64,000 nucleotides of DNA from a virus (lineage: Duplodnaviria > Caudoviricetes), in the IMG/VR virus record IMGVR_UViG_3300017766_003100, positions 1-64,000 of that record. One strand, 5' to 3'. The notes under the pieces were generated by a model. That model worked only from the letters and a program-made list of their open reading frames with translations, did no database searches and was not told the DNA's origin. Both the position numbers and the translations under genes were made by a program. Every line of letters starts with the position of its first letter. Position 1 is the stretch's first letter. This document shows, one piece after another, positions 42,321 to 59,208 of this stretch.

Positions 42321-42323
42321 ATT

Positions 42324-42698
42324 TTATTTTTTCATTTTATATTGGTTGTCTGACTTAGTAATATCTCTCTCCATTAAATCTTTAATAATATCATCATCCA
42401 TATTAATATCTGAAATAGAAAATGATTCTTTTGTAGAGTTTGTTTTTTCCCAAATTGAAGCTTGTAATTTAGAAAGAGATAGTTTTTTTTCAACACAATC
42501 ATTGATTATTTTTTGTTGTTTTTCAATAACAGGACCTATAAGAGTCATATCTTCAGGTTCTTTCATCATTGTCAACATTTTGTTTTGTATTCTAATTGCA
42601 GTATTTCTCTGTTCCACAAGTTCATTGTAGATTTCTTGCATCAAGGACAAAATAGATTCCTTAGATAAATTAATTTCTTTTTTTAATGGTCTAGGCAT
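42324..42698 (-). CDS. Hypothetical helical protein
   Basis: 124-aa ORF. Confidence 0.7.
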   Translation of the reverse strand: MPRPLKKEINLSKESILSLMQEIYNELVEQRNTAIRIQNKMLTMMKEPEDMTLIGPVIEKQQKIINDCVEKKLSLSKLQASIWEKTNSTKESFSISDINMDDDIIKDLMERDITKSDNQYKMKK

Positions 42699-42710
42699 AT
42701 AAATAAATAT

Positions 42711-43463
42711 TTATTTTATCATTTTTTCAACCATTGCGATATATATAAACTTAAATTTTTTAAGAGAACTTCGAATTTCTTTTGTACTTAAATTTGTCAT
42801 TTCTCTCAATGAAAGAAGAATTATATTTTTATTAAACTTATTGTTTGAAGTACTAACAAATATTTTATCATAATTTTCAAAAATCTCATATAAGGCATGA
42901 CCTAATTTGACTTCATTTTCATTAAGAGTTTCTTGTTTAAAAAGACTATCTAACTCTTTTAAAAAATTTTTGATAATATCTTCAGGTTCAACAACATAGT
43001 TGTCAATATTGTATGAATAATGTTCATCATTTTCCAAATCACTAGATATATCCTCATAGGAAATCTTTCGATTTGTTTCTTTTTGGTCTTTTAATATTTG
43101 ACCCATTAAATAATTCTTACAAATTGTACCGAAGTATGAGTAAGCTTTCTTTTCTTTTGATGGTTTGAACTTTTCAATTTTGGTCATCAAAAATGAATGG
43201 GTATCGTTGTGAATTTCATCAAATTCCGTGTCCTTTCGATATAGTTTGTAAGTCCTTATGATGGAGGAAATCATTTTATCAATGGGTTTCCTTAAAAAAT
43301 CATTATAGATTTTGTTTCTTTCTTGAAAAGAATCGGCAATTAAAAATTCTTTAACTGCCAATTCCTCTCTCTCTCCGAAATAAATTTTTTCTTTTTTTGG
43401 TTTTCTTCCTTTTTTCTTTGACTCTAAACTTGTATCCCCAGACAAATTTTTAATATCTGTCAT
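42711..43463 (-). CDS. gp55: Late-transcription sigma factor (T4 gp55-like)
   Basis: YFGEREE; PIDKMISSII; KIEKFKPSKEKKAYSYFGTICKNYL region-2-like motif. Confidence 0.75.
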   Translation of the reverse strand: MTDIKNLSGDTSLESKKKGRKPKKEKIYFGEREELAVKEFLIADSFQERNKIYNDFLRKPIDKMISSIIRTYKLYRKDTEFDEIHNDTHSFLMTKIEKFKPSKEKKAYSYFGTICKNYLMGQILKDQKETNRKISYEDISSDLENDEHYSYNIDNYVVEPEDIIKNFLKELDSLFKQETLNENEVKLGHALYEIFENYDKIFVSTSNNKFNKNIILLSLREMTNLSTKEIRSSLKKFKFIYIAMVEKMIK

Positions 43464-43472
43464 TAGGTTTTT

Positions 43473-44276
43473 TTATTCTTCAAATTTTATGGCTCTATCA
43501 ACAATAAAAAATGATTCTTTTTTTGCTGAGTCAATCCAGAATTTAACTTCTTCTTTAGAAAGTACTTCATCACCATTTTTGTAATTCCAAAATATTGAAC
43601 CTTGTCTTTGGTTGGTATGTTTATAACCAATTCTTGGAATTGTCATTATCTTCATTGAGTTGTGTGTCAATCTTAAAAACAACTCATATCCAAATGTTAG
43701 TTTGAATGATGCTTTTAGTAATCCAAAATCAACGAATGATGATTTTTTAATAACCATACCTGAGATTTGGAAATTCTGAAAACTTTGTAATGTTTCATTT
43801 GTGAGAATTCCCATTTCACTAGAAATGTTAACAGCAAATGTTGCCTCATTTGTGAAACCTGCAAATTGTCCATTTTCGGTAACATCAACTACAATTGGTA
43901 AGAAACAATCAACATCAGGATATACTTTGGAATACTTATTTGCATTATCAAACCATATCTTTGAATACTCATCATCAAATTCAAAAATAGATACCCATTT
44001 AGATTTTGCAATTCTAACACCATGATTTACTTGTTCTGAAAAGTTTGGATTTTTTGTCCAAACAACTCTGTTTACATTTAATCCACTAAATTCATAGCTG
44101 TCTAAAAATTCAACTAAACTTGTTTCATCTGTGTGTACTATAATAAGTTCATTGATTGGTGTTTTTTGTGTAACCAATGACATAATAGCTTTATTGAAAT
44201 AATCATCAAACCAAGGGTGGGTTGTAGATTTTATAGGTAATATTACTGATACATCAAATTTTTCCATATTAATCAA
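43473..44276 (-). CDS. Glycosyltransferase, GT-A (GT2-like)
   Basis: DVSVILPI; NFSEQVNHGV; IFEFDDEY. Confidence 0.75.
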   Translation of the reverse strand: MINMEKFDVSVILPIKSTTHPWFDDYFNKAIMSLVTQKTPINELIIVHTDETSLVEFLDSYEFSGLNVNRVVWTKNPNFSEQVNHGVRIAKSKWVSIFEFDDEYSKIWFDNANKYSKVYPDVDCFLPIVVDVTENGQFAGFTNEATFAVNISSEMGILTNETLQSFQNFQISGMVIKKSSFVDFGLLKASFKLTFGYELFLRLTHNSMKIMTIPRIGYKHTNQRQGSIFWNYKNGDEVLSKEEVKFWIDSAKKESFFIVDRAIKFEE

Positions 44277-45327
44277 TTGTTTGTAATTTATTTAATTGTT
44301 CTTCAAAAGATTTTAATCTTGTTTCAAGATAACCTTCGAAATTGTTTATTACACTTTGGTTAAATGATTCAGAAGTTGGAAGTTTCTCAATGGTACTATC
44401 CATTTGAGTTAATAAATTTTCATTAATATTATCTTCCAACAAATTCTGTAAGAAATCTGCAATGTAATCTACAATTTCATTCTTATTGTTAATCCAAAGT
44501 CCATTATCTTCTGACATCCATTCAGGAATCATTCTTGGTACAGTTCCCATACAAGGTACACCACATTTCATTGATTCCAATGGGAATGTTCCATAAGAAC
44601 TAATATCATCAATCCATACTGACATAAAACATTGTTTAAGGTTAAATGCAAATTCAGATTCACTCATACCTCTCATATCTTTGAATGTAACCCATCTATA
44701 TTGTGGGAATTTTAGATAGAATTGTTTGATAATATTCAAACCTTCTCTTTGGTCTCTAGTGTGAATACCAATTATTGGATTTGCGGGTAATGTATCTTTT
44801 TTGAAGCTATTAGATATGAATGGAGGAATAACATCAATTGAAACATTCTTCATTAAACTTGAAAGGTATTCCTTTTGTTGTTCAGATGTTGTGATACATT
44901 TTAAGAAACCTAATTGATTCCAAGATTGACCTGGTTGTAATGTTTCAAGTACATAGTCATATGATTGTGACAATACAATTTTACCACAAGGAAGATTACT
45001 TATCTGACTCATAACAAAACCATATAGTTCTGGTACAACAATGAAATCTTCAGGGGAAACTTGTAGTTTTTGCCCATCAATTGATGTGTGTGGAATATTC
45101 ATAAACTCTTGGTCTAACCAAGTAGATACACCAACATAATCACTTTTTTCATGTAACATTGTTACATTATAATTTTTGTCCCATAGAGATTTAGCCATTC
45201 TATAGGTGTAAGCTATTGAAGCTTTGGCGTTACCTTTAGTATCTTGTACTAAAAAATAAATCCTTGATTTTTTCTCTTTGAGATTTTGAATTGACTTCTC
45301 AATTTTTTCTATTTGTTCTGAATTCAT
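44269..45327 (-). CDS. Glycosyltransferase, GT-B-like
   Basis: VVPELY; YGTFPLESMKCGVPCMG (ExxxxG.P motif). Confidence 0.7.
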   Translation of the reverse strand: MNSEQIEKIEKSIQNLKEKKSRIYFLVQDTKGNAKASIAYTYRMAKSLWDKNYNVTMLHEKSDYVGVSTWLDQEFMNIPHTSIDGQKLQVSPEDFIVVPELYGFVMSQISNLPCGKIVLSQSYDYVLETLQPGQSWNQLGFLKCITTSEQQKEYLSSLMKNVSIDVIPPFISNSFKKDTLPANPIIGIHTRDQREGLNIIKQFYLKFPQYRWVTFKDMRGMSESEFAFNLKQCFMSVWIDDISSYGTFPLESMKCGVPCMGTVPRMIPEWMSEDNGLWINNKNEIVDYIADFLQNLLEDNINENLLTQMDSTIEKLPTSESFNQSVINNFEGYLETRLKSFEEQLNKLQTID

Positions 45328-45328
45328 A

Positions 45329-45598
45329 TTAAAATTTGTTTAATAATTTTTTATATAGTAAAGAATTAAATGCTAATCTGAATGGTATTGATAGTTCGGT
45401 ACTTTTCATACCTAATGCCTCATCAGCTTCTTCATTTTCTACGATTAAAGTTTCAATCATCATTTTAACCATTTCATATTTTACAACACTGATATGATTC
45501 TGTGGAGCACCTGTGAAATCAGATGGTGGTTCGACATTGATGTATTTTTCAATTTGGTCAATATCGAAGTAGTAATTTTCATTTAATATTTTTAACAT
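45329..45598 (-). CDS. Hypothetical protein
   Basis: 89-aa ORF. Confidence 0.7.
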   Translation of the reverse strand: MLKILNENYYFDIDQIEKYINVEPPSDFTGAPQNHISVVKYEMVKMMIETLIVENEEADEALGMKSTELSIPFRLAFNSLLYKKLLNKF

Positions 45599-46223
45599 AA
45601 TTTTCTAATTCTTTGATATTATTTAATGTGTAATCTTTGTTTATATCCTTATTATATTCAGTTTCATACTTAATAATCACCTTTTCTTGGGGATGATTTA
45701 ATAATAGGTCAGGATTTGCCGTAAGTAAAACATCAAACTCATCCCAAATATTATTTTTTGTTGAGTTTGAATAAAAAATTATCTTTTCCAATTCACAACC
45801 AAATTTTGATAAGAAAAATAAAGTTGCGGGTTTTGACTTCCCAATTTCATCCGAGATGATTATAAAATCATTTTCATTTCTCAAATTCTTATAAATCTCA
45901 TTCAAATCATTAAATGTGAACATTTCAGTTGATGGTGCGTGACCAAACAACTCCATACAATATTCTTCATACATAAATGAATAATATTCTTCATTAGTTT
46001 GAAATGCGAAATGTTCATTTAATGTTAAACTTGTGACAGGTGATAATATCTTATATTCAAATGGTTCTGATATTGTTTCCAATTCAGTATTACCTGATAA
46101 GTCAATTGTATAAGTTTGGGATGGTATATCTTGATAACTCTCTATTAAATGTTTTTCATATAAATGTGTGAATTTACCAATAGTGTCTCTTAATACACCA
46201 TTTACATCAATAGCAATTCTCAT
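45579..46223 (-). CDS. HAD-superfamily 5'(3')-nucleotidase-like protein
   Basis: MRIAIDVNGVLRD (DxN variant of motif I); KPATLFFLSK; YNK. Confidence 0.65.
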   Translation of the reverse strand: MRIAIDVNGVLRDTIGKFTHLYEKHLIESYQDIPSQTYTIDLSGNTELETISEPFEYKILSPVTSLTLNEHFAFQTNEEYYSFMYEEYCMELFGHAPSTEMFTFNDLNEIYKNLRNENDFIIISDEIGKSKPATLFFLSKFGCELEKIIFYSNSTKNNIWDEFDVLLTANPDLLLNHPQEKVIIKYETEYNKDINKDYTLNNIKELENYVKNIK

Positions 46224-46945
46224 TCTTCGTATCTTTTTAATATTTTTCCGATTAATGGATTTCTAACCACATCTTTATTATCAAATTCAAAAACTCCAAC
46301 ATCATCTAAACCTTTGAATTTTTTGATTGCATCATACAATCCTGAGTGTGTCTTATCTTTGTATCTATCGGTCTGTTCTAAGTCACCACTGATAAAAAAT
46401 TTACTATTGAACCCAATCCTTGTCAAGAGTAATTTCATTTGATTAGGAGTCGAATTTTGAGCTTCCTCAAATATTAGAATTGAGTTATCAATGTTCATAC
46501 CTCTCATATAGGCCAATGCAAAAACTTCAATAACATCAATTTCTTTCAATTTTTCTCTAGTTTCCTTACCAATGATTTTATTCATTAAGTAATATGAGGG
46601 GAAAATATAGGGGTCTAATTTTTCTTCAACATTACCAGGTAGAGAACCTAGTTTTTCTTCAGCTTCAACAGCAGGTCTAACAATGACAATTTTTTCGTAA
46701 GGTGAAGTTGGGTCAGATAAGATATCCAATGCAGCTTTCATCGCAATATATGATTTTCCAACACCAGCGGGTCCTGAACAAATTGTTATTTGATTTTTTT
46801 TCAATAAATCATAATATAATTTTTGATTGTCAGATAAGAACTTTTCTTTGGATTTCTTTTTGATTATTTCACAAATAATTTCCTTTCTTGTTTTTTTTGG
46901 TTCCTCACTATTCTGAGGTTGTGTTGGTTTTTTTCTTGTTGCCAT
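46220..46945 (-). CDS. phoH: PhoH-like ATPase
   Basis: GPAGVGKS; RPAVEAEEKLGSLPG; AYMRG; EEAQN; GDLEQTD; VVRNPL. Confidence 0.95.
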   Translation of the reverse strand: MATRKKPTQPQNSEEPKKTRKEIICEIIKKKSKEKFLSDNQKLYYDLLKKNQITICSGPAGVGKSYIAMKAALDILSDPTSPYEKIVIVRPAVEAEEKLGSLPGNVEEKLDPYIFPSYYLMNKIIGKETREKLKEIDVIEVFALAYMRGMNIDNSILIFEEAQNSTPNQMKLLLTRIGFNSKFFISGDLEQTDRYKDKTHSGLYDAIKKFKGLDDVGVFEFDNKDVVRNPLIGKILKRYEE

Positions 46946-46972
46946 TTAATTTATATTTTTATAAAAATTAAT

Positions 46973-46980
46973 CAAATATA
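46973..46980 (-). promoter_or_regulatory. Bacteroidota -7 element upstream of phoH
   Basis: TATATTTG on the minus strand, 28 nt before ATG 46945; no canonical -33 found. Confidence 0.45.
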
Positions 46981-46999
46981 AAAAAAATCAAGAGTTACT

Positions 47000-47887
47000 T
47001 TATGTTTGAAGTTCTTTAATGAAATCACTTATTCTTTTTTCGTAAGTGTGATTATTTTTACTTTTTAAGTAACCATTGTTACTAATCAAATTTCTTTCAG
47101 TTTCATTTTCTAAATAAAACTTGATTTTATCTATCAAATCGTCTTTAGTTTCATAAACGACAATATCTTGATTAATATTGAATAATAATTCCAACCCTTC
47201 TGTATAATTTGTCACCAATAAAGTTTTACAACCTGTTGTTTCAAACGTCCTATAATTTATATCATTTGATATATTACGATTGAAATGAATTTTGTATGAG
47301 TTTATAGTTCTAACCATATCCTCACCAATAACAAAAATATCTTTTTTTATATTAAAAATATTTAGATAATTTATCCATTCACCTCTATTATTAATATTAC
47401 CACAAAAACCAACATCAATATTTTTCTCAATCTCCATCGGAGTTATTAATGTATCATCATAACAATTAGGAAACCACAAGGTATTACCACAATAGTCTTT
47501 AAAGTTAGGTAAATAAGATTTAGTTGAGTTTAATAGAAAATCTGGTTTTATTTGTTTCACCAAATTAATATGTTGGTCTAACACACAATGAGAATCTATT
47601 GACCAAAATATTTTTATTTTTTTACTATTTTTAATCTTGTCCAATGGTAACCAAGTGGGGGTATAATTTTCTAATAAAAAAATAACGTCAGCCCAACTCT
47701 CTAACAATTTGAAATCATCATTAAAATTCTGATGTCCCAAACCCCACACAATACATTCAAATCCGTTTTTTTCAAATGCTCTTTTTAATGAAAAACATTC
47801 TCTATAATTTCTATTTTTTTCGTGTCTTCCGTTTTCTTGTATGATTAAAATTTTCATATTATTTTTTCGCGTAGAAAATATTACCAA
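47000..47887 (-). CDS. Glycosyltransferase, GT-B (CgeB/Glyco_trans_1_2-like)
   Basis: DVGFCG; KIHFN...INYRTFETTGCKTLLVT; HTYEKR. Confidence 0.85.
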   Translation of the reverse strand: MVIFSTRKNNMKILIIQENGRHEKNRNYRECFSLKRAFEKNGFECIVWGLGHQNFNDDFKLLESWADVIFLLENYTPTWLPLDKIKNSKKIKIFWSIDSHCVLDQHINLVKQIKPDFLLNSTKSYLPNFKDYCGNTLWFPNCYDDTLITPMEIEKNIDVGFCGNINNRGEWINYLNIFNIKKDIFVIGEDMVRTINSYKIHFNRNISNDINYRTFETTGCKTLLVTNYTEGLELLFNINQDIVVYETKDDLIDKIKFYLENETERNLISNNGYLKSKNNHTYEKRISDFIKELQT

Positions 47888-48467
47888 TGGTTTTATGAAC
47901 TTTATGATAATTGTGATTACTCAATATATCTTCAATTACTTGTGTACTATGTTCAATACAAATTAATTTTATATTAACTTTACTGAAATCAATACCCTCA
48001 ATCACATTTTGGTCAAAATCTTCGGTGTCAATACTGACGAAATCAATGTTTGTGATATTGTATTTATTAAAAATTTCAGACGTTTTTATAACTTTAGTTG
48101 ATAAAGTTTCAAAATCACAATTATAGATAGTTTTACATTTTAACATCTGTTCATTTTTGAACGTGGAAAGTTGTTCAAATTCATCATTTTTATCAATAAA
48201 AAACTCAACATTCGTTAATGTTTCTTTTCCGCAACCAACATTTTCAATTAAAACTGATTTATTGTTATCATATAATTTTTTTAATTTTTCAAAATTACGA
48301 GGATTTGGTTCAATCAATAATCCATTCCAACCTTTCTCAATTAAGAATCTACTATTAGAATATCTTACACCATCAGCTGCACCAATATCAACAACCAATC
48401 CATTTTTATTAATATCAAAAAATTGTTCTAGAAAAATTTCCTCACCATATTGTGAATATTTAGTCAT
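47859..48467 (-). CDS. FkbM-family methyltransferase
   Basis: YSQYGEE; VDIGAADG..SNS; LLIEPN; FVSIDTEDFD. Confidence 0.9.
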   Translation of the reverse strand: MTKYSQYGEEIFLEQFFDINKNGLVVDIGAADGVRYSNSRFLIEKGWNGLLIEPNPRNFEKLKKLYDNNKSVLIENVGCGKETLTNVEFFIDKNDEFEQLSTFKNEQMLKCKTIYNCDFETLSTKVIKTSEIFNKYNITNIDFVSIDTEDFDQNVIEGIDFSKVNIKLICIEHSTQVIEDILSNHNYHKVHKTIGNIFYAKK

Positions 48468-48481
48468 TTTATCAAAATTAA

Positions 48482-49132
48482 TTAATTTATTTTTTCACAC
48501 ACAAAAACACCAATTCCATTCCACCATGTATCTTTACCGCCTTTTTCACTATATGTTTCCAAAACAAATTTTTCATGAATTATTAATCCTGACTCAGTAA
48601 TTCCTTCGTATGTTCCATTATATACTGTTGGATAACTAAAATCATCAATTATTATTATTGAATACTTTGACATTATTGGGTAATAATATGTAATTGCTTT
48701 TTTGTGAGATTCCTGAGAATGGTTTCCATCGTACATATAAATGTCAATGTCACCAATTTTTTCTTTAATGGTGTTAATGTCTAACTTGAAACAATCTGAC
48801 TCTATGAAATTTAATGGTACTTCACCACAAAATTTTTTAACATTCGAGAAAAATATATCTTTTGGTCCGTTAAATTCTGCCCAATTATCAATAACTATTG
48901 AATTAATATTGTTTTTGTATGTTGCGGAAATAAAACTAGACCCCATCCAAGTTCCTATTTCTAAATAATTAACATTATCTAAGTTACAAATATTATTGTA
49001 AAAATGTCTAGTTTTATTACCAGACATACCTTCCATATTTAATATATCATTTGTTAATTTTGATTGTTTTTTTTCAGCCAACTCAAATGAATTCTTACAA
49101 TGGTTAATTAAAAACTCTAAAGAATACTTCAT
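48482..49132 (-). CDS. Class I SAM methyltransferase (Methyltransf_24-like)
   Basis: YLEIGTWMGSS; YMYDGNH; IIDD. Confidence 0.85.
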   Translation of the reverse strand: MKYSLEFLINHCKNSFELAEKKQSKLTNDILNMEGMSGNKTRHFYNNICNLDNVNYLEIGTWMGSSFISATYKNNINSIVIDNWAEFNGPKDIFFSNVKKFCGEVPLNFIESDCFKLDINTIKEKIGDIDIYMYDGNHSQESHKKAITYYYPIMSKYSIIIIDDFSYPTVYNGTYEGITESGLIIHEKFVLETYSEKGGKDTWWNGIGVFVCEKIN

Positions 49133-49138
49133 ATTTTT

Positions 49139-49768
49139 TTATTTTTTTTTCAAATGTATTATGAGGTCTCTATGACCAGGAATCAAATTTTCCGAAACTA
49201 CTATCCACTTATCATTTAAAATAGATTCAATAGTCTTGAAATTTTGATAATAATGTCCAAAAGGTAACAAATCCCCCAAAACAAAATTTTCTGGATTAGT
49301 TATGATTTGTTTTGAAAATTCAAAATTTGCTAACATAAATACAAAATCAGAATTTGGTTTTAACACTCGATAAACATCATTAATATAATTATGAATTAAC
49401 TCATTTGATAAATGACAAAAAGCATTATAAGAGAAAACAAAATCAATCAATTCATCTGATATGTTTACACAAGAAGAATTCTGATTACCACACTCTATAA
49501 ACTCAACATCATTAAAATTTTCAAACTTTTTTGGTTTTTTTATTACATCAATTGCATATATTTTTTGGAACTTTCCTGTCATTTTTTCAGTGAAAGTTCC
49601 ACCTCCAGGTCCGATTTCCAAAGCAATCTTACTTTTATCAAAAAAAGGATATAATGCGACTTCACAGACTCTTTGAATTCCTACCCCATAGTTAAAATTA
49701 TCATAATAACCATCACCCCAAAAATTTTGGAACTCTTCCTTAGTAAAAGTTTTATTTTTTTCAAACAT
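49139..49768 (-). CDS. Class I SAM methyltransferase
   Basis: LEIGPGGG; DFVFSYNAFCH; RVLKP. Confidence 0.85.
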   Translation of the reverse strand: MFEKNKTFTKEEFQNFWGDGYYDNFNYGVGIQRVCEVALYPFFDKSKIALEIGPGGGTFTEKMTGKFQKIYAIDVIKKPKKFENFNDVEFIECGNQNSSCVNISDELIDFVFSYNAFCHLSNELIHNYINDVYRVLKPNSDFVFMLANFEFSKQIITNPENFVLGDLLPFGHYYQNFKTIESILNDKWIVVSENLIPGHRDLIIHLKKK

Positions 49769-49783
49769 ATTTTTTATTTTTTT

Positions 49784-50437
49784 TTATTTTATAAATTTCC
49801 AATATTCAGGATGTCTGATATCATTTTCATCAAAAACATCACCAACAAATTCTTTATTTATTCTTTCAGTTGGGAATTTTTTTCTTTCATAATTATAATC
49901 AAAAAATTCATCATGGATGTATGAATTATTTTTAACTATAGGATATATTTTTTCTCTTAAAAAATTTTGGTCTACTTGCCAAAAATTTCCTTTTTTATAA
50001 TCATTTATCAAAGTTTTCATATTTTTTAATATTCCATTTCTACATCCCCACATACCACCTAATATTTCTGTTGTATGGTGTGGATGGTCTCTCATAATAT
50101 GAAAATCTTTATCACTATTTAGCCATTCATCAACTGCCAATTTTTCTCTAAGATTTAATCTGCTATCAGTGTCTCTTGATAACATTATATCTGAATCATC
50201 GCAAGCTAAAAACCTCCAAAACATACCCTCCCAATTCCCATCTTCTTCCATTAAAATAACTTCAGTTGTTGATATTTTTTTTAGGGTTTCAATAATTTCG
50301 GAAGGTACACTTTTACCACAATAAAATCTTGAAGTCCAACCTAAATATATTATAGGAGTTAATTCAGCATTTTTAATTGCTCCAATTGTATATTTTGGGT
50401 TATCACCCCATAAACTAAATGATATTATTTTTTTCAT
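49784..50437 (-). CDS. Probable glycosyltransferase-like protein
   Basis: ISFSLWG..PKY..GA; WRFL; SRDTDSR (DxD); FHIMRDHP; DQNFL. Confidence 0.6.
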   Translation of the reverse strand: MKKIISFSLWGDNPKYTIGAIKNAELTPIIYLGWTSRFYCGKSVPSEIIETLKKISTTEVILMEEDGNWEGMFWRFLACDDSDIMLSRDTDSRLNLREKLAVDEWLNSDKDFHIMRDHPHHTTEILGGMWGCRNGILKNMKTLINDYKKGNFWQVDQNFLREKIYPIVKNNSYIHDEFFDYNYERKKFPTERINKEFVGDVFDENDIRHPEYWKFIK

Positions 50438-50441
50438 AAAA

Positions 50442-51074
50442 TTAATAATTCTTTAAAAAAAGTTTCCAGCCATAAATACCTAAATCAATCATTGTAAAAT
50501 CATTTTTAATAATTTTGGCAATACATTCTTCAGTTTTCTTATGATAAATTTGATTATTAAACTGAGGTAAAAAATTATGAAAACTAACACATATTTGGTC
50601 TACAGAATCAAAGTCATCAAAAGAATCAAACAAATCCCATTCAGAACCTTCTATATTTACTTTTAAAATTGATATTGATTTAATATTAAATTTAAATTTA
50701 AAATCAGACCAAGTTATTACGTCATATTCACCCATTTCATTAGGTATTATTGACCCCGCAATACCATTTGAGCTTAAATTAGCTTTACCTGTAAATGTTG
50801 ATATAAACCCTTTAAATAATTCAGAATGTTCATTTGGACTTTCTTGAGGGTCTACACCAATAACTTTCTTCTTACCAAAGAAATAACCAGCCCAATTATC
50901 ACTTGTAACTTCTTCAAAGTTTTTATTCCATCCTAAACAACCCAAGTCAACAATGCACCCATTATGTGTTTCAAATCTTGGGTGAACACGGCTCCAAATA
51001 TTTACATCTTGATTGGAGTTTACATACCAATTAGGTCTTATTTGAATTAATTCGTGTTTAATGTTGTTTTCCAT
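50442..51074 (-). CDS. FkbM-like methyltransferase
   Basis: IVDLGCLG; IGVDP; LKVNIEGSEW; QICVSFH. Confidence 0.7.
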   Translation of the reverse strand: MENNIKHELIQIRPNWYVNSNQDVNIWSRVHPRFETHNGCIVDLGCLGWNKNFEEVTSDNWAGYFFGKKKVIGVDPQESPNEHSELFKGFISTFTGKANLSSNGIAGSIIPNEMGEYDVITWSDFKFKFNIKSISILKVNIEGSEWDLFDSFDDFDSVDQICVSFHNFLPQFNNQIYHKKTEECIAKIIKNDFTMIDLGIYGWKLFLKNY

Positions 51075-51107
51075 ATTTTATTTTTTATACAAGTCTTGAA
51101 TGTTCAT

Positions 51108-51767
51108 TTACAACTCAAAATTCATTTTTTGTCTTCTTTGAAAGACCATTCTGTCTTCTCTATCGTGATTAGAATTCAAAGAGTGTATAATATCTCTCCC
51201 ACCATATCCCCAATCAGGATGTTGGTGATGGATAATTACTTTATCTATAAAAATTTGTTTTTTCAATAAATTACCAACTGTCATAAATTCATTATCAGCC
51301 CAAAGTGATTTATAGTCAGGATGATAGATATATCCAAATCTTTCGTAATATTTTTTACCTAAAATACATAGAGTATTTAAATCTTTTCTATTTCCATCAT
51401 TGAACCAAAGTATTCCATCTGTGTCAGGATAATTAATGACCATATTGAATCTTATTTGTTCGTCATATCCTTTTTCAATAGGAATCATATCATCAGAGGC
51501 AAGTAGAATAATGTCCCAATCACCTAATTCAATGTCACGATTAACTGCATGTATTTTATTATTACTTTTACCAAAAACAAATCTAAGATTTTCATATGAT
51601 TTTAATTTATCAATGACTTCTTGGTTATTCATTGAGTCATCATCATAATCTAATGTTAGCAAAAACTCAATTTTTGATAAATCTGTTGCAAAGTCATAAT
51701 ACTTTTGAAGTACTTCAAAAAATTTATCTTTTCTGTTTCTTGTTGGGAATTTAATTAAAATTTTCAT
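51108..51767 (-). CDS. Glycosyltransferase, GT-A
   Basis: LIKFPTRNR; KIHAVN; LASDDM; LWADNE. Confidence 0.75.
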   Translation of the reverse strand: MKILIKFPTRNRKDKFFEVLQKYYDFATDLSKIEFLLTLDYDDDSMNNQEVIDKLKSYENLRFVFGKSNNKIHAVNRDIELGDWDIILLASDDMIPIEKGYDEQIRFNMVINYPDTDGILWFNDGNRKDLNTLCILGKKYYERFGYIYHPDYKSLWADNEFMTVGNLLKKQIFIDKVIIHHQHPDWGYGGRDIIHSLNSNHDREDRMVFQRRQKMNFEL

Positions 51768-51769
51768 TT

Positions 51770-52336
51770 TTAGTGTCTAACATTATACATTACTTCAGGA
51801 GTAATTACAAATTTATTTGATTGTTTTTTCAATTCCATCAGAAAATCAAAATCTTCACCATCTCTATTTTGGGAAAAAAACAACTCCTTAAAAATAGTTT
51901 TTTTGTAACAGAAAGAAATACCAACTGTTGCAAATTTTAATTCATTTAAATGAAATGGAGGTAAAACTAAACCATTTTCATATGCCATTCTCCAAACAAC
52001 AAAATCATATTTATTATATTTTTCAAACAATATTTTAACATAATCTTTATTAATGGTATCATCATCATCCAAAAAACCAATCCATTCTGTATCAACTAAT
52101 TTTATACCTTCGTTTCTAACCAATCCTGATTGTCCATTTTTAGGACCAACTAATCCTATCTTATCAATCTTAATTGTTTTGACTCTATTATCATCAAATG
52201 ATTCACCATCAACACCATCATAAACAACTATCGCTTTCCAATTTGATACAGATTGTTGTATCAAAGATTGTATAGTTCTTTTAAGTGTTGGTCTATTTAA
52301 TGATGGTATTATAAATGTTATATTATTCTCAATCAT
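51770..52336 (-). CDS. Glycosyltransferase, GT2
   Basis: FIIPSLNR; VVYDG; RNEGI; GFLDDDD; GEDFDF. Confidence 0.85.
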   Translation of the reverse strand: MIENNITFIIPSLNRPTLKRTIQSLIQQSVSNWKAIVVYDGVDGESFDDNRVKTIKIDKIGLVGPKNGQSGLVRNEGIKLVDTEWIGFLDDDDTINKDYVKILFEKYNKYDFVVWRMAYENGLVLPPFHLNELKFATVGISFCYKKTIFKELFFSQNRDGEDFDFLMELKKQSNKFVITPEVMYNVRH

Positions 52337-52337
52337 A

Positions 52338-53849
52338 TTATTGTGTAAATAAAATTTTATCTTTTAATTTCATTAAATTTTTCTTAACAAATGGCGTTAA
52401 AGTTTGATTAAAGTCATATTCAATCACTTTCATATTACCCTCAACATATCTGGTTTTACTTTCGTAATGATAGGCGGTATGTGTTCCTACGTTATAATTT
52501 TCAAAACCTATAAGTAGTAATTTTAAATTTAATTCAACATCTTCAAAACAATCAATATATTCCTCATTAAACATACCAATTTGTCTAAATGTATTTGTAT
52601 TAATCATCATTAATCCCGCAGTATTTCCAATACACTTTGTAATATCTTTATTAAAATTATAATATGACCATCTATTACGATTAACAATACTAAGTCCCAT
52701 ATTTGATAATTTAAGTCCAACTAAAATTCCATCGTGCTGAATAGTATTGTCATCATAATGTAGTCTGCAACCAACAGTCCCTACTTTAGATTTAATATTA
52801 TAAACATTTAACATTCCACTAATAACATCAGAAGTAAGTTTAATATCATTATTACAGAATAAAATATACTGATGTGTTTTATCCAAATGATTTTTAACAA
52901 CATCATTATTTATCTTTGCAAAATTATAATAATCATATTTGATTAATTTTATATTATCCAAACTATTAACCAATTCTTCAATTACATTAATTTCTTCCTC
53001 AGTTGAACCAGTGTCAGCAATAAAGATATCAAATAATTTAGGATTACAATATTCATAAAAAGAATCAATACATTGAATTAACAATTCTATATTACCCTTT
53101 GTTGGTATAATTACCCCAACTTTACCTTTCAATTTAACATCTTTAATTTTGACTTCAGGAGTATAAATTGATGTTGGTTTTAAATCCAAAGGTAATACAT
53201 CTTTATATTTTCCAACAAACTTAATTTTACTATCAAAGAATTCCTGATTAGGTTGTCCCACAGATTCGTGAGTTATTTCAAATGAAGATGTGACCCCAAT
53301 TTTAATTCCATCCAAATAGTTTGGTACACAAAATCCGTGGTCATAAAAATGAAACTTACCAATTGTTTCATCAAACTTATGTTTAATTTTTGTCTTATCA
53401 AAAGACATAAATAAACCATCAATTGTAACTACTGGAATTAAAAATGGTAATTTAGGGGAATAGTTGTTAATCCATTTCTTTTGTCCTTCAGGATGATGCC
53501 AAACTTGACCAACCATAGTTAAATTCATTCTCTCCCAATAAACTCCTGATTCAGGAAAATAACAAGAACCAGCTTTTCCAATTATACCGAATTTGGGGTA
53601 ATTGGAAAAATCTTCCATTAATTTAATACCCCAATTTTTTTCAAGTTTAATATCATTATGGCAACAAACAACAATATCATATATTGATTCCGTTATTCCA
53701 CTATTGTAAACTTCGGCCAAAGAATATTGATTATTGTTTTGATATTCCAATATCTGAACGTCATTAAGACCCACACTAGTTTGAAGGTGGGTCTTAAATT
53801 TTTCGTTATATTCTTTATCTTTATGTGTTGAATAAATTATTGTTATCAT
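52338..53849 (-). CDS. Two-domain glycosyltransferase (tandem GT-A)
   Basis: Domain 1 CCHNDI...TIDGLF...FHFYD; domain 2 VIIPT...ADTGS...LFCNNDI...FEDVELNL. Confidence 0.85.
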   Translation of the reverse strand: MITIIYSTHKDKEYNEKFKTHLQTSVGLNDVQILEYQNNNQYSLAEVYNSGITESIYDIVVCCHNDIKLEKNWGIKLMEDFSNYPKFGIIGKAGSCYFPESGVYWERMNLTMVGQVWHHPEGQKKWINNYSPKLPFLIPVVTIDGLFMSFDKTKIKHKFDETIGKFHFYDHGFCVPNYLDGIKIGVTSSFEITHESVGQPNQEFFDSKIKFVGKYKDVLPLDLKPTSIYTPEVKIKDVKLKGKVGVIIPTKGNIELLIQCIDSFYEYCNPKLFDIFIADTGSTEEEINVIEELVNSLDNIKLIKYDYYNFAKINNDVVKNHLDKTHQYILFCNNDIKLTSDVISGMLNVYNIKSKVGTVGCRLHYDDNTIQHDGILVGLKLSNMGLSIVNRNRWSYYNFNKDITKCIGNTAGLMMINTNTFRQIGMFNEEYIDCFEDVELNLKLLLIGFENYNVGTHTAYHYESKTRYVEGNMKVIEYDFNQTLTPFVKKNLMKLKDKILFTQ

Positions 53850-54457
53850 ATTCCAGTTGAACCAAAACCTTTATCAGCTCTATCAGTTTTATTTATGTCT
53901 TTCTTCTTAACCAAATTAACCCACTTTCCATTAACCACAGAAGTTAATACAGCTTGGGCAATCTTCATTCCTTTATTCACCACAAATTCGTGATTATTAA
54001 CATTGAATAGAATAACTTTAACTTCACCAGTATAACTATTATCAACAGTACCTGGTGAGTTTAACACCATAAGACCTTGTTTTAATGCCAAACCACTTTT
54101 TGACCTAACTTGGATTTCATACCCATCCTTTATTTCAAAAGCCAAACCAGTGGAAACTAATGCTCTTCCAAATGGGGGTAGAAGAACTTCTTCAGTTGAA
54201 TATAAATCAAATCCTGAATCACCATCATAATTATAAAATGGTTCAACAGCATCAGGATTTAGTTTAACAAAACCAAGGTCTAATTTTGGACTATAATTCA
54301 ACATATCTTCTTCAAGTTGTTTTAAATCCAAACCAAATTCTTCATAAATCATATCATAATCAATATCCCCACCTTTTTCATTTTCTTCAATTAACTTTTC
54401 AAGTTTTGAAGCGTATTCACCAATGTTTTCTAGTTTACTTAAATCATTTATATTCAT
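53846..54457 (-). CDS. dut: Trimeric dUTPase with N-terminal extension
   Basis: SGFDL; RSKSG; GTVDNSYTGE; IAQ; RADKGFGSTG. Confidence 0.93.
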   Translation of the reverse strand: MNINDLSKLENIGEYASKLEKLIEENEKGGDIDYDMIYEEFGLDLKQLEEDMLNYSPKLDLGFVKLNPDAVEPFYNYDGDSGFDLYSTEEVLLPPFGRALVSTGLAFEIKDGYEIQVRSKSGLALKQGLMVLNSPGTVDNSYTGEVKVILFNVNNHEFVVNKGMKIAQAVLTSVVNGKWVNLVKKKDINKTDRADKGFGSTGI

Positions 54458-55164
54458 TTCAAATCTTTTAATTTTTTAACAATATGAATAAGGACATCAA
54501 CATCCTTTTCACAATATTCACTTATACCTTTTAGGTTTTGTTTTTCCCAATATTCATTATGTACATTTTCTCCAACCACTTCTCCATTTTTTGGAGTTTC
54601 AATACCAATAGTTGAACACAACAAATCCAAAGAACCTATTGAGGTATAAGCACCATATTGCCAAATTTCTTTGGTGTCAATAGCTTTTATTTCCCAAGGT
54701 TTGGTATCATAACTTGGTAAGATTGATGGCGGCATTAATCCATTGATAATCATACGTTTTGCCAACATTGGTATATCAAAATTTTTAAGATTATGACCAC
54801 ACAACCAAAAATCTAATTTACCACATTTAATTAATAACTTTTGTACATCAGATAAAAGTTTATATTCATCATCATTACAAAAAGTTTGTTTTCTAATTTC
54901 TCCATTATCCAAAACAAATGCAAAACTAATACAAACTATTTTTGCAAATTCAGGAACTAATCCAGCGCGTTTTATAAAAACTTGATTCTTTTGGTCAATT
55001 TCAATATCAGAATCTTCTGGAAATCTTTTAAGAAACCAATCAAAATACTTATCAAATTGTTGTGCAACAATTGGATTTAAATTTGAACATACGTCATAGT
55101 TAGGACAACCACCAACAGTTTCAATGTCCATAAACAAAATCTTAGAAATTGGAATTTTTATCAT
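54454..55164 (-). CDS. PolB-like 3'-5' exonuclease (DEDDy)
   Basis: FMDIETV; GHNLKNFDIP; YCEKDV. Confidence 0.88.
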   Translation of the reverse strand: MIKIPISKILFMDIETVGGCPNYDVCSNLNPIVAQQFDKYFDWFLKRFPEDSDIEIDQKNQVFIKRAGLVPEFAKIVCISFAFVLDNGEIRKQTFCNDDEYKLLSDVQKLLIKCGKLDFWLCGHNLKNFDIPMLAKRMIINGLMPPSILPSYDTKPWEIKAIDTKEIWQYGAYTSIGSLDLLCSTIGIETPKNGEVVGENVHNEYWEKQNLKGISEYCEKDVDVLIHIVKKLKDLK

Positions 55165-55168
55165 AGTT

Positions 55169-56383
55169 TTATTTTATAAGTGATTTGTACCATTCAGCTC
55201 TATCTTTTGTAATCTTTTTAAGACTATACTTGTCTTTAACTGTCTCGTATAATCTTTCACCCAAATCTACAACTAAATTTGGATTATACACAAGAGTTTT
55301 GATATTTTTTGCCCAATCAGCGTGATTTCTTTGTTCTTTAACCAAAAGTGCATTACCATCCGTAAATTTACCAAACTCTAATGAATGTTTCAAATCAATG
55401 GTGTAAGGTCCTACTTCCGATGCAATCAAAGCTCTTTTATAAAATCCCGCTTCAATAACTTTTAATTGAGATTTAACTCGATTAAAGATATGGTTTTTAA
55501 TTGGGGCTAAAGATATATCAAATTTGGAATAATTTGTAGCATAAGTATTAACAGGTTTAGTCCAAACTCTTCTGTATGGTAAACTACTTTCATCATTATA
55601 TTCAGCTTCTCTAAATTCAGATAAAAATTGTTTGTACTGAGGCGTTACAATGTTATAATTGTTAGTGAAGATTTCTTCATATCTCGCCCATACAGTTTCT
55701 TCAGGTTTAATAGCTCTTTGTTTTCTTTCACCAGTTTGAGGATTAATTTCAGTAATAGTTCCTCTTGTATCAAAACCACATAGAACGTACTGAATCTTAT
55801 TGTTTAGTTGACTATTTTTACCAACAAATCCCTCCAATAGTTTTAAGTCGTGAAAGTGGGAAGAACCTCCTAACCATCCTACTCTAATTCTATCAGATTC
55901 CTCAATAGGTTGTTTAAATTGTGGTTCATCAGGATTAATACCATTAGGGAATACAACGACATTTCTATTCAATTTTCTAATCTCATCAGCAAAAATACTA
56001 GTTGTAGTTGTAATATAACTTGCAACTTTAAGATTTGCCATAATTTTTTCATGGATTTTATCTTGAACAATTAATTGGTGAATTGGATGTTCTTTGCCTG
56101 GTAACCAATAATCATCCAAATCAACAACAACAATGATTCCTTGTGATTTTAGAAAATTTATTATGTTTGGGGTTTGTTCATAATTTGCTCCAATGTTTCT
56201 GTGGATGTGAACAATTTGATATTGTTTCCAATAATTCAAATTATTTATTTGTGGTTGATAATCTATATCCACATAGAAATCATCAGGATACATATTTTGT
56301 AACATAACGTGGGGGTCTACAGAACGAAATTTTCCTACACCAGTTGTGTCACTTGGGAGTACTAATACTTTTATTTTTGACAT
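55169..56383 (-). CDS. Glycosyltransferase, GT-B
   Basis: VDLDDYW; RVGWLGGSSH; ISLAP...FNRVKSQLKVIEAG; ASEVGPY. Confidence 0.85.
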   Translation of the reverse strand: MSKIKVLVLPSDTTGVGKFRSVDPHVMLQNMYPDDFYVDIDYQPQINNLNYWKQYQIVHIHRNIGANYEQTPNIINFLKSQGIIVVVDLDDYWLPGKEHPIHQLIVQDKIHEKIMANLKVASYITTTTSIFADEIRKLNRNVVVFPNGINPDEPQFKQPIEESDRIRVGWLGGSSHFHDLKLLEGFVGKNSQLNNKIQYVLCGFDTRGTITEINPQTGERKQRAIKPEETVWARYEEIFTNNYNIVTPQYKQFLSEFREAEYNDESSLPYRRVWTKPVNTYATNYSKFDISLAPIKNHIFNRVKSQLKVIEAGFYKRALIASEVGPYTIDLKHSLEFGKFTDGNALLVKEQRNHADWAKNIKTLVYNPNLVVDLGERLYETVKDKYSLKKITKDRAEWYKSLIK

Positions 56384-56444
56384 AATTTATATATTTTATC
56401 CCAAATAATAACAATAAATTTTTATTAATTCAATAGAATAGGGA

Positions 56445-56491
56445 TAAAAAAACGAAACCCCACAACTTGAATTTCTTCAGGGGATGTGGGG
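56445..56491 (-). terminator. Probable terminator (minus strand)
   Basis: ccccaca...tgtgggg stem with inner cttgaa/ttcagg, then T-rich tail on the minus strand. Confidence 0.55.
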
Positions 56492-56515
56492 AATAAGATA
56501 TTAAATTATTAAAAA

Positions 56516-57124
56516 TTATTTTACTTTTTTAATACGTGTGACTTTACCTTCAAATATATGACTACCAACTCTGAATTGGAATACGTCATTTGTTTTACTA
56601 TCACTTTCAATAAGTAAACCATTTTCACCTAATACTTCTTCTATAGTTTCTCTAATCATATCTTTCAATGTGTTCTTATCAAAGTTTAAGTTTGTATTTT
56701 GATACTTTGAAGATTCTTGAACTTGTTGTTTTTGTCCTTGGAATGGTGACTTATTATTTGCCACATCATTTTTCATTAATCTTGACGCTTTCTCAATTAA
56801 ATCATTACTTAACACTGAAGAACTTCCCATACTACTTGGTTGTGTAATTGGATGTTCAATCATAAGTCTTTTAATTTCATCAGGTAACTTAGATTGCAAA
56901 ATTCTTTCTTTTGATGGTAATTCATTATTAGGTCTAATCGTAGGTTGTGATTCCATCATTAAATCTTGTGGTAGATTATAATTAATATTTGGAGTTTGAA
57001 ACTCTTGTAATTCAGGAGTTTGTGGTATATTTCCTTGGACGTGTCCTCTAGGAATTTGATTATGAACATCCATTATTTTTTTGGACATTGCTAATTTTTG
57101 TAATAAACTATTTTCGTTTAACAT
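56516..57124 (-). CDS. Hypothetical Gln/Pro-rich protein
   Basis: 202 aa; starts MLNE; VQE and LIE motifs. Confidence 0.7.
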   Translation of the reverse strand: MLNENSLLQKLAMSKKIMDVHNQIPRGHVQGNIPQTPELQEFQTPNINYNLPQDLMMESQPTIRPNNELPSKERILQSKLPDEIKRLMIEHPITQPSSMGSSSVLSNDLIEKASRLMKNDVANNKSPFQGQKQQVQESSKYQNTNLNFDKNTLKDMIRETIEEVLGENGLLIESDSKTNDVFQFRVGSHIFEGKVTRIKKVK

Positions 57125-57127
57125 ATA

Positions 57128-57520
57128 TTAAATATTTTCATCAAATTTTACATTTATTATAACCGTTTTCATTGTCTTATCACCATTTGGGTTATAATTT
57201 GGTCTTGGCGTTGCAAACTTATCACCAGTTTTAGAAAATGATAAGATTTTATCTAATCTAAACAATCTCCATCCTGGTATAGGTCTTGTCCCTAATAATC
57301 CTCTATGACTCGCACCTTCAATATCCCAAGCTCTCAAAACTGGATTACCTGCTTTACTATAACTAAAACAAACTGGTTCAATTTCACGTAAACCTTTTCC
57401 ACCAGGTTCATCACCATCATAATAGATGACAATCCTATTTTTATTTCTGATAGCATCAATAACACTTTCAATTGAGGCTACTTCTAAAATAAGAGACTTA
57501 GCAATATTGTAAAGTTTCAT
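57128..57520 (-). CDS. Stand-alone WYL-domain protein
   Basis: IVIYY...REIEP...LRAWD...WRLFRLDKI. Confidence 0.75.
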   Translation of the reverse strand: MKLYNIAKSLILEVASIESVIDAIRNKNRIVIYYDGDEPGGKGLREIEPVCFSYSKAGNPVLRAWDIEGASHRGLLGTRPIPGWRLFRLDKILSFSKTGDKFATPRPNYNPNGDKTMKTVIINVKFDENI

Positions 57521-57813
57521 TATGCACTTGGGGTTGTATATGGTTTGTTTGATTGATATTCATTTATCACTATTTGAGCTCTTCTTTCAACAATATCTTG
57601 TATTGCACCTGCGGTCTCATTGTACACATCAAGGAAATCACCAGTTCCTTTTCCTTGTGCATCACCATCGGCTAAAGCATCAGGATTTACCGCTGAATAT
57701 GCGTTACCCGTTGAGAAATCATTTTTAGGTAATAGTTTTTTTCTTTCAGCTTCAGCTATTGCTGATAAGTCGTTCTTGGGTTGTTCGAAATTTAATGGTT
57801 CTGTAACTGCCAT
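57520..57813 (-). CDS. Hypothetical protein
   Basis: 97-aa ORF. Confidence 0.7.
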   Translation of the reverse strand: MAVTEPLNFEQPKNDLSAIAEAERKKLLPKNDFSTGNAYSAVNPDALADGDAQGKGTGDFLDVYNETAGAIQDIVERRAQIVINEYQSNKPYTTPSA

Positions 57814-57814
57814 A

Positions 57815-58288
57815 TTACATTATTTTTTTTAATAAATTATTTATCCTTTTAAGGCTTTCAGTAACTTCCAAATTATATTTTGCAAGTGTACTTTTATGTT
57901 CTTGACTTGTTCTTAAATCGTGACCAACGTTTTGGTCTTTTTCGTGTGGTTGAATAAATTGATTAGGTAGAACTACTGACCTTATTTCTTTTGTTCTATA
58001 CGCGTCATCTCTCATTGAGTTTAAAGTTTGATTTACCCAATTCTTCATATAATCACCCCCATTTAATACAAATGGTTTGTCAGTATTATTACCTTGAAAA
58101 TTATCAAAGAAATTTTTGATTCTTTTCAATTGTTGGTAAGTAACATAACCCGTATCTCTAAGTTCTCTGTTTCTCCTAAATCCCTCAACACTATCATCGG
58201 CATCAGGTACAACGTCATTACATTGTTTAAGATAAACAACAACTTCTTCAGGTAATTCTATCTTTTCTCCGTATAAATCTTTATTCAC
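57815..58288 (-). CDS. Putative head-cargo protein
   Basis: C-terminal VTESLKRINNLLKKIM. Confidence 0.65.
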   Translation of the reverse strand: MNKDLYGEKIELPEEVVVYLKQCNDVVPDADDSVEGFRRNRELRDTGYVTYQQLKRIKNFFDNFQGNNTDKPFVLNGGDYMKNWVNQTLNSMRDDAYRTKEIRSVVLPNQFIQPHEKDQNVGHDLRTSQEHKSTLAKYNLEVTESLKRINNLLKKIM

Positions 58289-59156: not shown

Positions 59157-59208
59157 TACAAATTTTTCTTAATAAATACTTTGATTTAGAGTATTTATCA
59201 TTAAAAAT

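Follow-up and report, generated by a model that had tools for sequence, protein, structure and literature searches.

The 64,000 nucleotides analysed here (the window; positions 1 to 64,000 of IMG/VR record IMGVR_UViG_3300017766_003100, a virus of the Caudoviricetes) carry a glycan-building operon of a T4-like freshwater giant phage that runs along the minus strand for ~13.7 kb, from ~56433 to 42711, as delimited by promoter and terminator layout and by gene order. This operon is a conserved core of glycosyltransferase (GT) genes combined with exchangeable cassettes, and the cassettes are cleanly replaced even in the closest relatives. A cytoplasmic, export-less pathway that decorates its glycan with methyl groups is well supported by these data. 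Although the cluster lies physically inside the structural region, its sequence signals make it look like a separate operon expressed before the late genes. We tentatively propose that the most likely target of this soluble, apparently pre-late glycan line is the set of proline- and threonine-rich (Pro-Thr) late proteins encoded next door.

A conserved enzyme frame with exchangeable cassettes

Between positions 43473 and 56383 the minus strand encodes eight GT genes with nine GT domains, three firm methyltransferase (MT) genes and one weak one; each open reading frame (ORF) is named below by its lower coordinate. A preliminary description, made from the sequence alone, had placed a GT/MT cluster of ~13 kb here, co-oriented with a sigma-factor gene and a baseplate hub. 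Both points stand: the cluster, the hub-like gene and ORF 42711, a sigma factor by its matches to Atlas clusters, all lie on the minus strand, and the ORFs from 42711 to 59156 are without exception minus-strand and mostly tightly tiled. The gene list of that description was right for the GT and MT genes and left out five other genes that interrupt them, encoding a PhoH-like ATPase, an NT5C-like protein, an 89-amino-acid (aa) ORF product, a dUTPase and a PolB-exo-like exonuclease. Family assignment by Pfam, PHROG and AlphaFold2 (AF2) models bears out the GT and MT calls, that of ORF 50442 just weakly. When the 12.9-kb cluster was compared by megablast with a set of 50,697 phage records, no match was returned.

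Using the two-domain GT of ORF 52338, we recovered 63 related IMG/VR loci, all on uncultured contigs, some of them 272–340 kb long, and mapped every window protein onto these loci with tblastn for presence and gene order. Four GT genes (55169, 52338, 44269 and 43473) form a lineage-conserved frame. The first, ORF 55169 (55169–56383), encodes a GT-B enzyme of the GT4-like, retaining-type fold (PHROG 7162, E = 2e-44; weak by Pfam), with homologues in 48 loci at a median identity of 69%; metagenomes yield at least 7,900 clusters of its sequences. Its AF2 model (predicted local distance difference test score, pLDDT, 89.8) adopts a GT-B/GT4-like fold, and its best Foldseek matches, namely GlgM, ManT (a methylmannose-polysaccharide mannosyltransferase), MshA, PglA, BshA and ALG2, are generic for GT4, with template-modelling (TM) scores of 0.53–0.66 and 10–15% identity. 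The second, ORF 52338 (52338–53849), is a two-domain GT-A protein by Pfam (Glyco_tranf_2_5 and GT2) that is present in 63 of 63 loci at 39–97% identity. The third, ORF 44269 (44269–45327), is again a GT4-like GT-B, a weak GT1/GT4 call by Pfam (Glycos_transf_1, E = 1.6e-4; 35 loci) whose Protein Data Bank (PDB) sequence matches are to BshA-type GT4 enzymes (E = 0.002–0.005). The fourth, ORF 43473 (43473–44276), is a GT2 (Pfam Glycos_transf_2, E = 4.5e-6, 27.1 bits against a cut-off of 23.3; 29 loci). The PDB sequence search gave nothing for 55169 and 52338, and weak matches alone for 44269, 43473 and 50442.

Distant relatives of ORF 55169 occur elsewhere. A homologue of 34% identity is encoded by the 735-kb uncultured megaphage LR756501, and cultured E. 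coli Phapecoctavirus phages have four adjacent annotated GT genes (gp102–105, positions 45046–48190 of NC_052662.1) a few kb upstream of their DNA polymerase I gene, two of which resemble 55169 at ~28% identity. A literature search on the function of these Phapecoctavirus GTs found nothing relevant.

In the shared gene order, 58281-57815-57520-57128-56516 is followed by 55169, the exonuclease, the dUTPase and 52338; a variable island comes next, and beyond it the order resumes as PhoH-45579-45329-44269-43473-42711-42324-40389-38588. This island, hot spot 1, lies between 52338 and PhoH (46946–52337 in the window, minus strand) and holds eight genes here: three GT-like genes, one that is GT-A by fold and four that are MT-like. 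All eight (47000 to 51770) are non-core: out of the 63 loci, the number that carry a given one ranges from 0 to 11. The GT2 gene 51770 (51770–52336; Pfam E = 4e-15) is common to 11 loci and the GT-like gene 51108 (51108–51767; PHROG 14945, E = 5.7e-17) to six, while a CgeB-type GT-B, 47000 (47000–47887; Pfam Glyco_trans_1_2, E = 1.5e-26), is shared with a single locus, L001. ORF 49784 (49784–50437; five loci) has no Pfam match and is assigned as a GT-A-fold GT from a conserved RDxDSR motif, from matches to hexosyltransferase-like viral clusters of the Atlas and from its AF2 model (pLDDT 75), which matches glycogenin, Skp1 alpha-GalT and PBCV-1 A64R at the generic GT-A level of likeness (12–16% identity). 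Three MT genes make up a sub-cassette at 47859–49768: 49139 (Methyltransf_11, Pfam E = 5.7e-10), 48482 (Methyltransf_24, 28.9 bits against a cut-off of 26.3) and 47859 (FkbM, Pfam E = 1.3e-15). The fourth, ORF 50442 (50442–51074), is a probable FkbM-like MT: its Pfam match (E = 0.003) is weak and below the cut-off, it aligns collinearly with 47859 through the VDxG and IEGxE motifs, and a homologue was found in 0 of the 63 loci.

Comparison with two close relatives revealed where cassettes are exchanged. In L038, both flanks share 79–85% DNA identity with the window and the two-domain GT is 97% identical in protein; from 51770 to 46959 DNA homology is lost altogether, its place being taken by 7.4 kb of other genes. 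L001 retains 51770, 51108, 49784 and 47000, and the three-MT block alone (47868–49818) is swapped out for ~4.2 kb with six representative ORFs. In both, homology is lost abruptly, within flanks that are otherwise 79–93% identical. Across 42 loci the distance from 52338 to PhoH ranges from 70 bp to 9.5 kb, and the 272 co-oriented island ORFs (264 from relatives and the eight of the window) fall into 130 clusters at 35% identity. Hot spot 2 is the gap between the dUTPase gene and 52338 (0–2.9 kb), which can contain pairs of Methyltransf_24 and GT92-type genes or a UDP-galactopyranose mutase gene, also where the main island is absent; hot spot 3 is the gap between 56516 and 55169, usually ~110 bp and sometimes 1–3 kb.

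A Pfam census of 125 island representatives revealed a broad repertoire: firstly, GTs of families GT2, GT10 and GT11; secondly, MTs of the FkbM, Methyltransf_24, TylF and CmcI/rhamnosyl-O types; thirdly, sugar enzymes, namely GDP-mannose 4,6-dehydratase (GMD), short-chain dehydrogenase/reductase (SDR) epimerases, RmlD-like proteins, UDP-GlcNAc 2-epimerase, UDP-glucose dehydrogenase and a cytidylyltransferase; and lastly, DegT and class I/II aminotransferases, hexapeptide acyltransferases, WbqC, a formyltransferase and a PIG-L deacetylase. Taken over all hot spots, the relatives' cassettes also encode GT92, Glf, fucosyltransferases and whole nucleotide-sugar pathways. Thus, the reported lack of nucleotide-sugar genes is true of this window, whereas the islands of relatives hold many.

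Other inserts at the two smaller hot spots are of a different kind. Those of 1–3 kb in the gap between 56516 and 55169 (L023:2734-5904, L002:3438-4343, L055:6550-7467 and L010:6646-7494) hold helix-turn-helix-bearing, homing-endonuclease-like ORFs, and the L023 insert additionally has three paralogous small ORFs starting MPLNVD(Q/K)IS. Two loci carry, between the dUTPase gene and 52338 (L061:7561-8734 and L002:7018-8194), a zinc-finger-like ORF of ~295 aa, without Pfam match in the case of L061:7561, together with a 100-aa ORF annotated with Hint-like wording; this pair may represent mobile elements rather than glycan genes.

Transcription signals and predicted timing

The surroundings of the cluster are structural, with terminase, portal and major head protein, and the N-terminus of ORF 38588 (minus strand) reads like a gp5-type hub; the flanking genes at 34340–42698 and 56516–59156 gave almost nothing by Pfam and PHROG. 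The preliminary description had put the cluster inside the late/structural region. This is correct for its location but is not supported for its transcription programme: the cluster lies behind a terminator-like hairpin and a promoter of host type and lacks the late motif TATTTAT.

A terminator-like hairpin (56446–56491, minus strand; a 7-bp G+C stem and a U-run; fold −14.2 kcal/mol, z −2.57) closes the late unit 58281–56516, and a hairpin with a T-run is also found upstream of 55169 homologues in many relatives. At 56405–56433 on the same strand, 50 nt upstream of 55169, is a host-type promoter, TTGAAT-17-TATTAT with a TG, which is the presumed start of the operon. We call this promoter because of its position and its conservation in relatives; a generic sigma-70 scan is unenriched in this AT-rich window (123 sites, 130 expected). 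Specifically, of 35 distinct relatives 23 have TTGAnn-17-TAnnnT before 55169, the spacer being 17 nt in every one and the surrounding sequence diverged, against a background of 0–5 of 17–60 loci per gene before other genes. The element also seems to fit the shape of Bacteroidota primary-sigma promoters, TTG...TAnnTTT(G). Intergenic sites of the same kind stand before five other window genes (starts 270, 11493, 11604, 27988 and, for PhoH, 46945), which include the neighbour of the RNA ligase (270) and an ATP-dependent protease (11493), and one of the sites overlaps a late motif. The protease, a 676-aa AAA+ protein (9463–11493, minus strand; PHROG 4871, E = 8.7e-244), is alone among plus-strand genes and its site reads TTGAAA-16-TATATT.

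The late-type motif TATTTAT(A), read on the coding strand, is the reverse complement of the T4 late promoter TATAAATA and lies 12–30 nt upstream of 17 window genes, including the terminase gene, the flankers of the head-protein gene, 58281, 59209, 61588, 37099 and 42324; window-wide examples are the plus-strand genes at 2060, 5688, 13167, 17110, 21844, 24461, 27976 and 28689 and the minus-strand gene at 42698. The T4 form itself is unenriched in the window overall (17 against 14.9), the signal being the complement TATTTAT before gene starts. Position-specific counts separate the structural genes from the cluster: TATTTAT is upstream of 58281 in 26 of 28 loci and of 42324 in 16 of 17, and upstream of the cluster genes 52338, 53846, 44269 and 42711 in 0 of 60, 47, 33 and 23 loci, respectively. 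It is likewise absent upstream of 56516 (0/41 loci). A late motif driving the glycan cluster was thus rejected.

The operon ends with a phage RNA polymerase sigma-factor gene (42711–43463, minus strand; Atlas viral sigma-factor clusters, score 0.99, TM 0.80; a weak sigma70-ECF match besides). A late-type TATTTAT(A) at 42698–42705 (minus strand) overlaps the end of this gene and starts the next unit, 42324 and then the gp5-like hub gene 38588. The remaining conserved members are a PolB-exo/RNase H-like 3'-5' exonuclease (54454–55164; Pfam DNA_pol_B_exo2, E = 2.4e-10; 48 loci); a dUTPase with an N-terminal extension of ~60–70 aa (53846–54457; Pfam E = 1.3e-26), which is a true dUTPase, scoring 144.6 bits on the NCBIfam dut equivalog (cut-off 103); the PhoH-like ATPase that forms the right border of the island (46220–46945; Pfam E = 4e-63; 42 loci); an NT5C/HAD-like protein (45579–46223; 40 loci), for which the Atlas feature matches to NT5C clusters, at 0.93–0.95, are a lead only; and the 89-aa ORF (45329–45598; 35 loci), which has no Pfam or PHROG family match.

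The cluster looks pre-late because of the terminator-like hairpin, the host-type promoter, the lack of a late motif and the sigma-factor gene at its end. A sigma-factor gene in the same unit, with dUTPase, exonuclease and PhoH alongside, is a mark of pre-late rather than late timing, and from this layout we infer early expression. RNA datasets gave no entry for a 9.9-kb stretch and, for a single gene, two runs of small share; on 42500–62400 these two consist of short contig pieces, mostly less than 90% alike and hence from relatives, and are uninformative on timing and level.

Solubility, export and the target of the glycan

A hydropathy scan found no hydrophobic, transmembrane or signal segment in any GT or MT of the window and no window ORF with more than three transmembrane-like segments. 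None of the 272 island ORFs is polytopic, and just 8 have one marginal hydrophobic segment. By the same measure, neither the window nor the 272 ORFs contain a candidate flippase, polymerase, ligase or initiating polyprenyl-phosphate transferase; Wzx/Wzy, ABC exporters and GtrA, GtrB or Gtr-type proteins are absent both by hydropathy and from the 25 commonest families in each Pfam tally. By this proxy, covering the window and the island ORFs, the earlier claims that no flippase or polymerase is encoded and that no GT has a signal peptide hold, and the idea of a cytoplasmic methyl-capping pathway gains support, with all enzymes soluble and no export or polymerase gene among the 272 ORFs. As the phage has no lipid-carrier, flippase, polymerase or ligase function, the glycan is therefore most likely built on a phage-made acceptor.

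Candidate acceptors are encoded immediately beside the operon. Two plus-strand genes at 59209–62514, ORFs 59209 and 61588, encode proteins of 777 aa and 308 aa with long Pro-Thr tracts; both have the late motif (TATTTAT at −17 and −30) and are divergently transcribed neighbours of the operon. ORF 59209 has tblastn matches in 41 loci, 28 of which match half or more of the protein, and stays beside the operon in relatives. In the genome-wide checks, for which related IMG/VR records stand in for the window's own whole genome, a GT60-type (PF11397) polypeptide GlcNAc-transferase was found in four of five related records (E = 1e-57 to 1e-61), and PF11397 matched in 0 of 14 control prokaryote genomes.

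These observations suggest how the system might work. The four conserved GT genes, with five GT domains, would build a conserved inner glycan, and cassettes at up to three hot spots would add lineage-specific outer sugars and O-methyl caps, this window's cassettes contributing four more GTs and four MTs. Assembly would take place in the cytoplasm directly on a phage-made acceptor, the likeliest being Pro-Thr-rich late proteins, both those of the neighbouring genes and others encoded in the genome, perhaps primed by the GT60-type polypeptide GlcNAc-transferase of the lineage. The enzymes would be made before the virion proteins, as in chloroviruses. Somewhat more tentatively than the choice of target, we suggest that the phage has an O-antigen-like locus of its own and shows this glycan on Pro-Thr proteins of its particle, the conserved core and cassette-diversified outer part defining serotype-like 'glycotypes', different among closely related phages and laid down by enzymes made pre-late.

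Several points weigh against a virion-protein glycan. Co-occurrence of the cluster with Pro-Thr proteins across relatives had been put forward as a check, and 59209 does have matches in 41 loci and stays beside the operon in relatives; the pairing is shared by descent in all loci and is therefore not independent evidence. One relative, G004, has the core GTs and no GT60-type match. The cluster is preceded by a host-type promoter rather than a late motif and shares its unit with genes for dUTPase, exonuclease, PhoH, an NT5C-like protein and a sigma factor, and early enzymes interleaved with nucleotide-metabolism genes are a pattern of DNA-modifying enzymes too. Mycobacteriophage virion-glycosylation genes sit within the late structural operon, and the cluster described here is a separate unit. 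Finally, soluble GTs normally assemble O-antigen units on undecaprenyl carriers, and enzymes that lack transmembrane segments could still draw on the carrier and export machinery of the host.

The leading alternative, which we nonetheless consider unlikely, is that the soluble GTs and tailoring enzymes remodel the host envelope, acting early on undecaprenyl-linked O-antigen, capsule or protein-O-glycan intermediates and relying on the host's initiating transferase, flippase and ligase to alter the cell surface, for example against superinfecting phages or grazers. The host-type early promoter agrees with such a role, as does an enzyme repertoire that is that of O-antigen and capsule loci, and methyl capping is a feature of ABC-transporter-dependent O-antigens. 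It is also how the 'LPS' (lipopolysaccharide) clusters of cyanomyophages and pelagimyophages are usually read (PMC7029224; PMC12801897). However, neither the window nor the 272 island ORFs offered a candidate for a flippase, polymerase, ligase or polyprenyl-phosphate transferase, although in bacterial loci genes of this kind co-vary with glycan structure. Moreover, the cassettes differ radically among near-identical phages, and host export would have to accept all of their products, while a lytic infection presumably leaves little growth in which to replace a surface polymer.

We regard as improbable a second alternative, in which the product is another cytoplasmic one that serves infection physiology and not the particle: a methylated polysaccharide or glycoconjugate, either free or anchored to a lipid, or a glycan on host proteins or non-structural phage proteins. 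Early timing would suit it, and the fold matches of 55169 include GlgM and ManT, makers of cytoplasmic products; yet these matches are at the generic GT4 level given above, and the extreme cassette turnover suggests exposure to recognition by other organisms.

Hypermodification of phage DNA was addressed in three complete or near-complete relatives (CheckV 93–100%). Each has a single gene of the thymidylate synthase (TS) family, and the two that were scored match the thymidylate synthase PHROG at ~1e-99 and the NCBIfam equivalog at 269–295 bits against a cut-off of 108. Tet_JBP had no match in the complete relatives, a weak blank, as the control was also silent in every genome. A C5-methylase is present in one of the three, whereas the core GTs are universal. 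A partner for a DNA glycan, either a hydroxymethylase or a C5-methylase together with a TET/5mYOX enzyme, was not found in these relatives. No window ORF has a ThyA-like match, in line with the earlier claim that the window encodes no base hydroxymethylase, and no cluster gene has a Pfam match to the T4 alpha- or beta-GT type of DNA GT. Phage GTs resembling LPS enzymes place mono- to trisaccharides on 5-hydroxymethylcytosine (5hmC) (10.1101/2023.12.21.572611). That the GTs here sugar modified phage bases against restriction, with cassette turnover driven by modification-dependent nucleases, is thus very unlikely: the early-type operon interleaved with dUTPase, exonuclease, NT5C-like and PhoH genes, the precedent on 5hmC and the distant Phapecoctavirus homologues in a four-GT block near a DNA polymerase gene speak for it, but the lone TS-family gene passes as a thymidylate synthase equivalog, Tet_JBP gave no match (a weak negative), the C5-methylase does not accompany the universal core GTs, 55169 best matches GT4 enzymes rather than a T4-type DNA GT family, and nine GT domains, fucosyltransferases, sugar O-methyltransferases and amino- and deoxy-sugar pathways far exceed known DNA glycans. 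The earlier view that the cluster does not serve DNA glucosylation is therefore upheld in so far as the known base-glycosylation routes are unsupported in complete relatives.

The TSs of related giant phages are long (337–350 aa) and have an internal insertion, including those of L064 and L065; at G004:C1:4283-5587 the TS match is split in two inside one open frame of 442 aa.

Known systems and neighbouring genes

Large aquatic T4-like phages carry 'LPS/cell-wall' GT clusters of untested function in hypervariable regions (PMC7029224; PMC12801897). Like those of P-SSM2, S-SCSM1 and S-SCSM2R and the host-recognition islands of pelagimyophages, the cluster described here unites several GT and sugar-tailoring genes (8 GT and 4 MT genes) in a large phage, with nucleotide-sugar enzymes in the relatives, and occupies, close to structural genes, a hypervariable region without synteny. 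It differs in that a fixed four-GT frame brackets defined hot spots, that MTs are prominent, and that the whole forms one operon with a host-type promoter, a sigma-factor gene at its end and dUTPase, exonuclease and PhoH genes inside. The host is probably neither a cyanobacterium nor SAR11. New for this window are the exact cassette breakpoints against two close relatives, the three hot spots, the cassette census, the position-specific promoter statistics and the tests of DNA routes.

Among the core orthogroups of the moraphages, large freshwater phages with predicted Bacteroidota hosts and contigs of 200–307 kb, four separate ones bear the annotation of putative glycosyltransferase (Perez-Hernandez et al., 2025, PMC12619734). 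Likened by description, they share with the present lineage the four core GTs, found here in contigs of 272–340 kb, and the two may be the same; operon structure, cassette turnover and promoter class are not among the features described in PMC12619734.

Glycosylation of the chlorovirus PBCV-1 capsid (A064R and others) and of Mimivirus fibrils likewise uses soluble virus-encoded GTs and MTs, as found in this cluster. In both systems a conserved core carries strain-variable decoration. Chloroviruses also encode GDP-sugar enzymes; here GMD occurs in the islands of relatives and not in the window. ORF 49784 matches a PBCV-1 capsid-glycosylation GT structure (2p6w) at a TM score of 0.57–0.59, which is the generic GT-A level. 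Unlike the present phage, these viruses infect eukaryotes, and their glycans occupy capsid N-glycan sites where the candidate sites here are Pro-Thr tracts.

Mycobacteriophage glycan sites are Ser/Thr-rich, and some mycobacteriophage virion-glycosylation sets include an O-methyltransferase. In Che8, Corndog and Myrna, glycans are described at the C-termini of capsid and tail-tube subunits (Freeman et al., 2023, as cited in PMC12619734). Both systems have phage-encoded GTs, which in the mycobacteriophages glycosylate virion proteins; the mycobacteriophage sets have 2–4 genes in a late structural operon, in contrast to the at least eight GT genes in a separate early-type unit here. Phage DNA glycosylation (the T4 alpha/beta-GTs; the MT-5mYOX-GT clusters of Pyle et al.) has in common with this operon early phage GTs related to LPS enzymes, but here no hydroxymethylase or TET partner is conserved, and the number and kind of enzymes exceed known DNA glycans.

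Should the particle prove to carry the glycan, virion glycosylation would no longer be confined to a few mycobacteriophages but would include a very abundant freshwater lineage, and phages would run a serotype-like variable locus of their own; this would matter for host range, for the stability of particles, for grazing and for how host defences detect the phage. Were the target the host envelope or DNA instead, the operon would still be a rich and naturally combinatorial source of soluble GTs, sugar O-methyltransferases and rare-sugar pathways. The frame-plus-cassette layout offers a concrete handle, in that cassette type could be correlated with ecology.

A few features of individual neighbouring genes deserve mention. 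In the NT5C/HAD-like protein (45579–46223, minus strand) motif I reads DVNGV, the second catalytic Asp being replaced by Asn, and this protein may be a variant or inactive phosphatase. The portal protein (19099–21843, plus strand; 914 aa) matches PHROG 213 (E = 6e-66) over residues 414–812 and has HNH-endonuclease-like matches at residues ~118–355; a homing-endonuclease module may be fused to or inserted in its N-terminal part. Between the sigma-gene/late-motif boundary and the hub, the 643-aa protein of ORF 40389 (40389–42320, minus strand), which has no Pfam or PHROG family match, contains two hydrophobic segments, around residues 415 and 496; it may be a tail protein that is tape-measure-like or acts on membranes.

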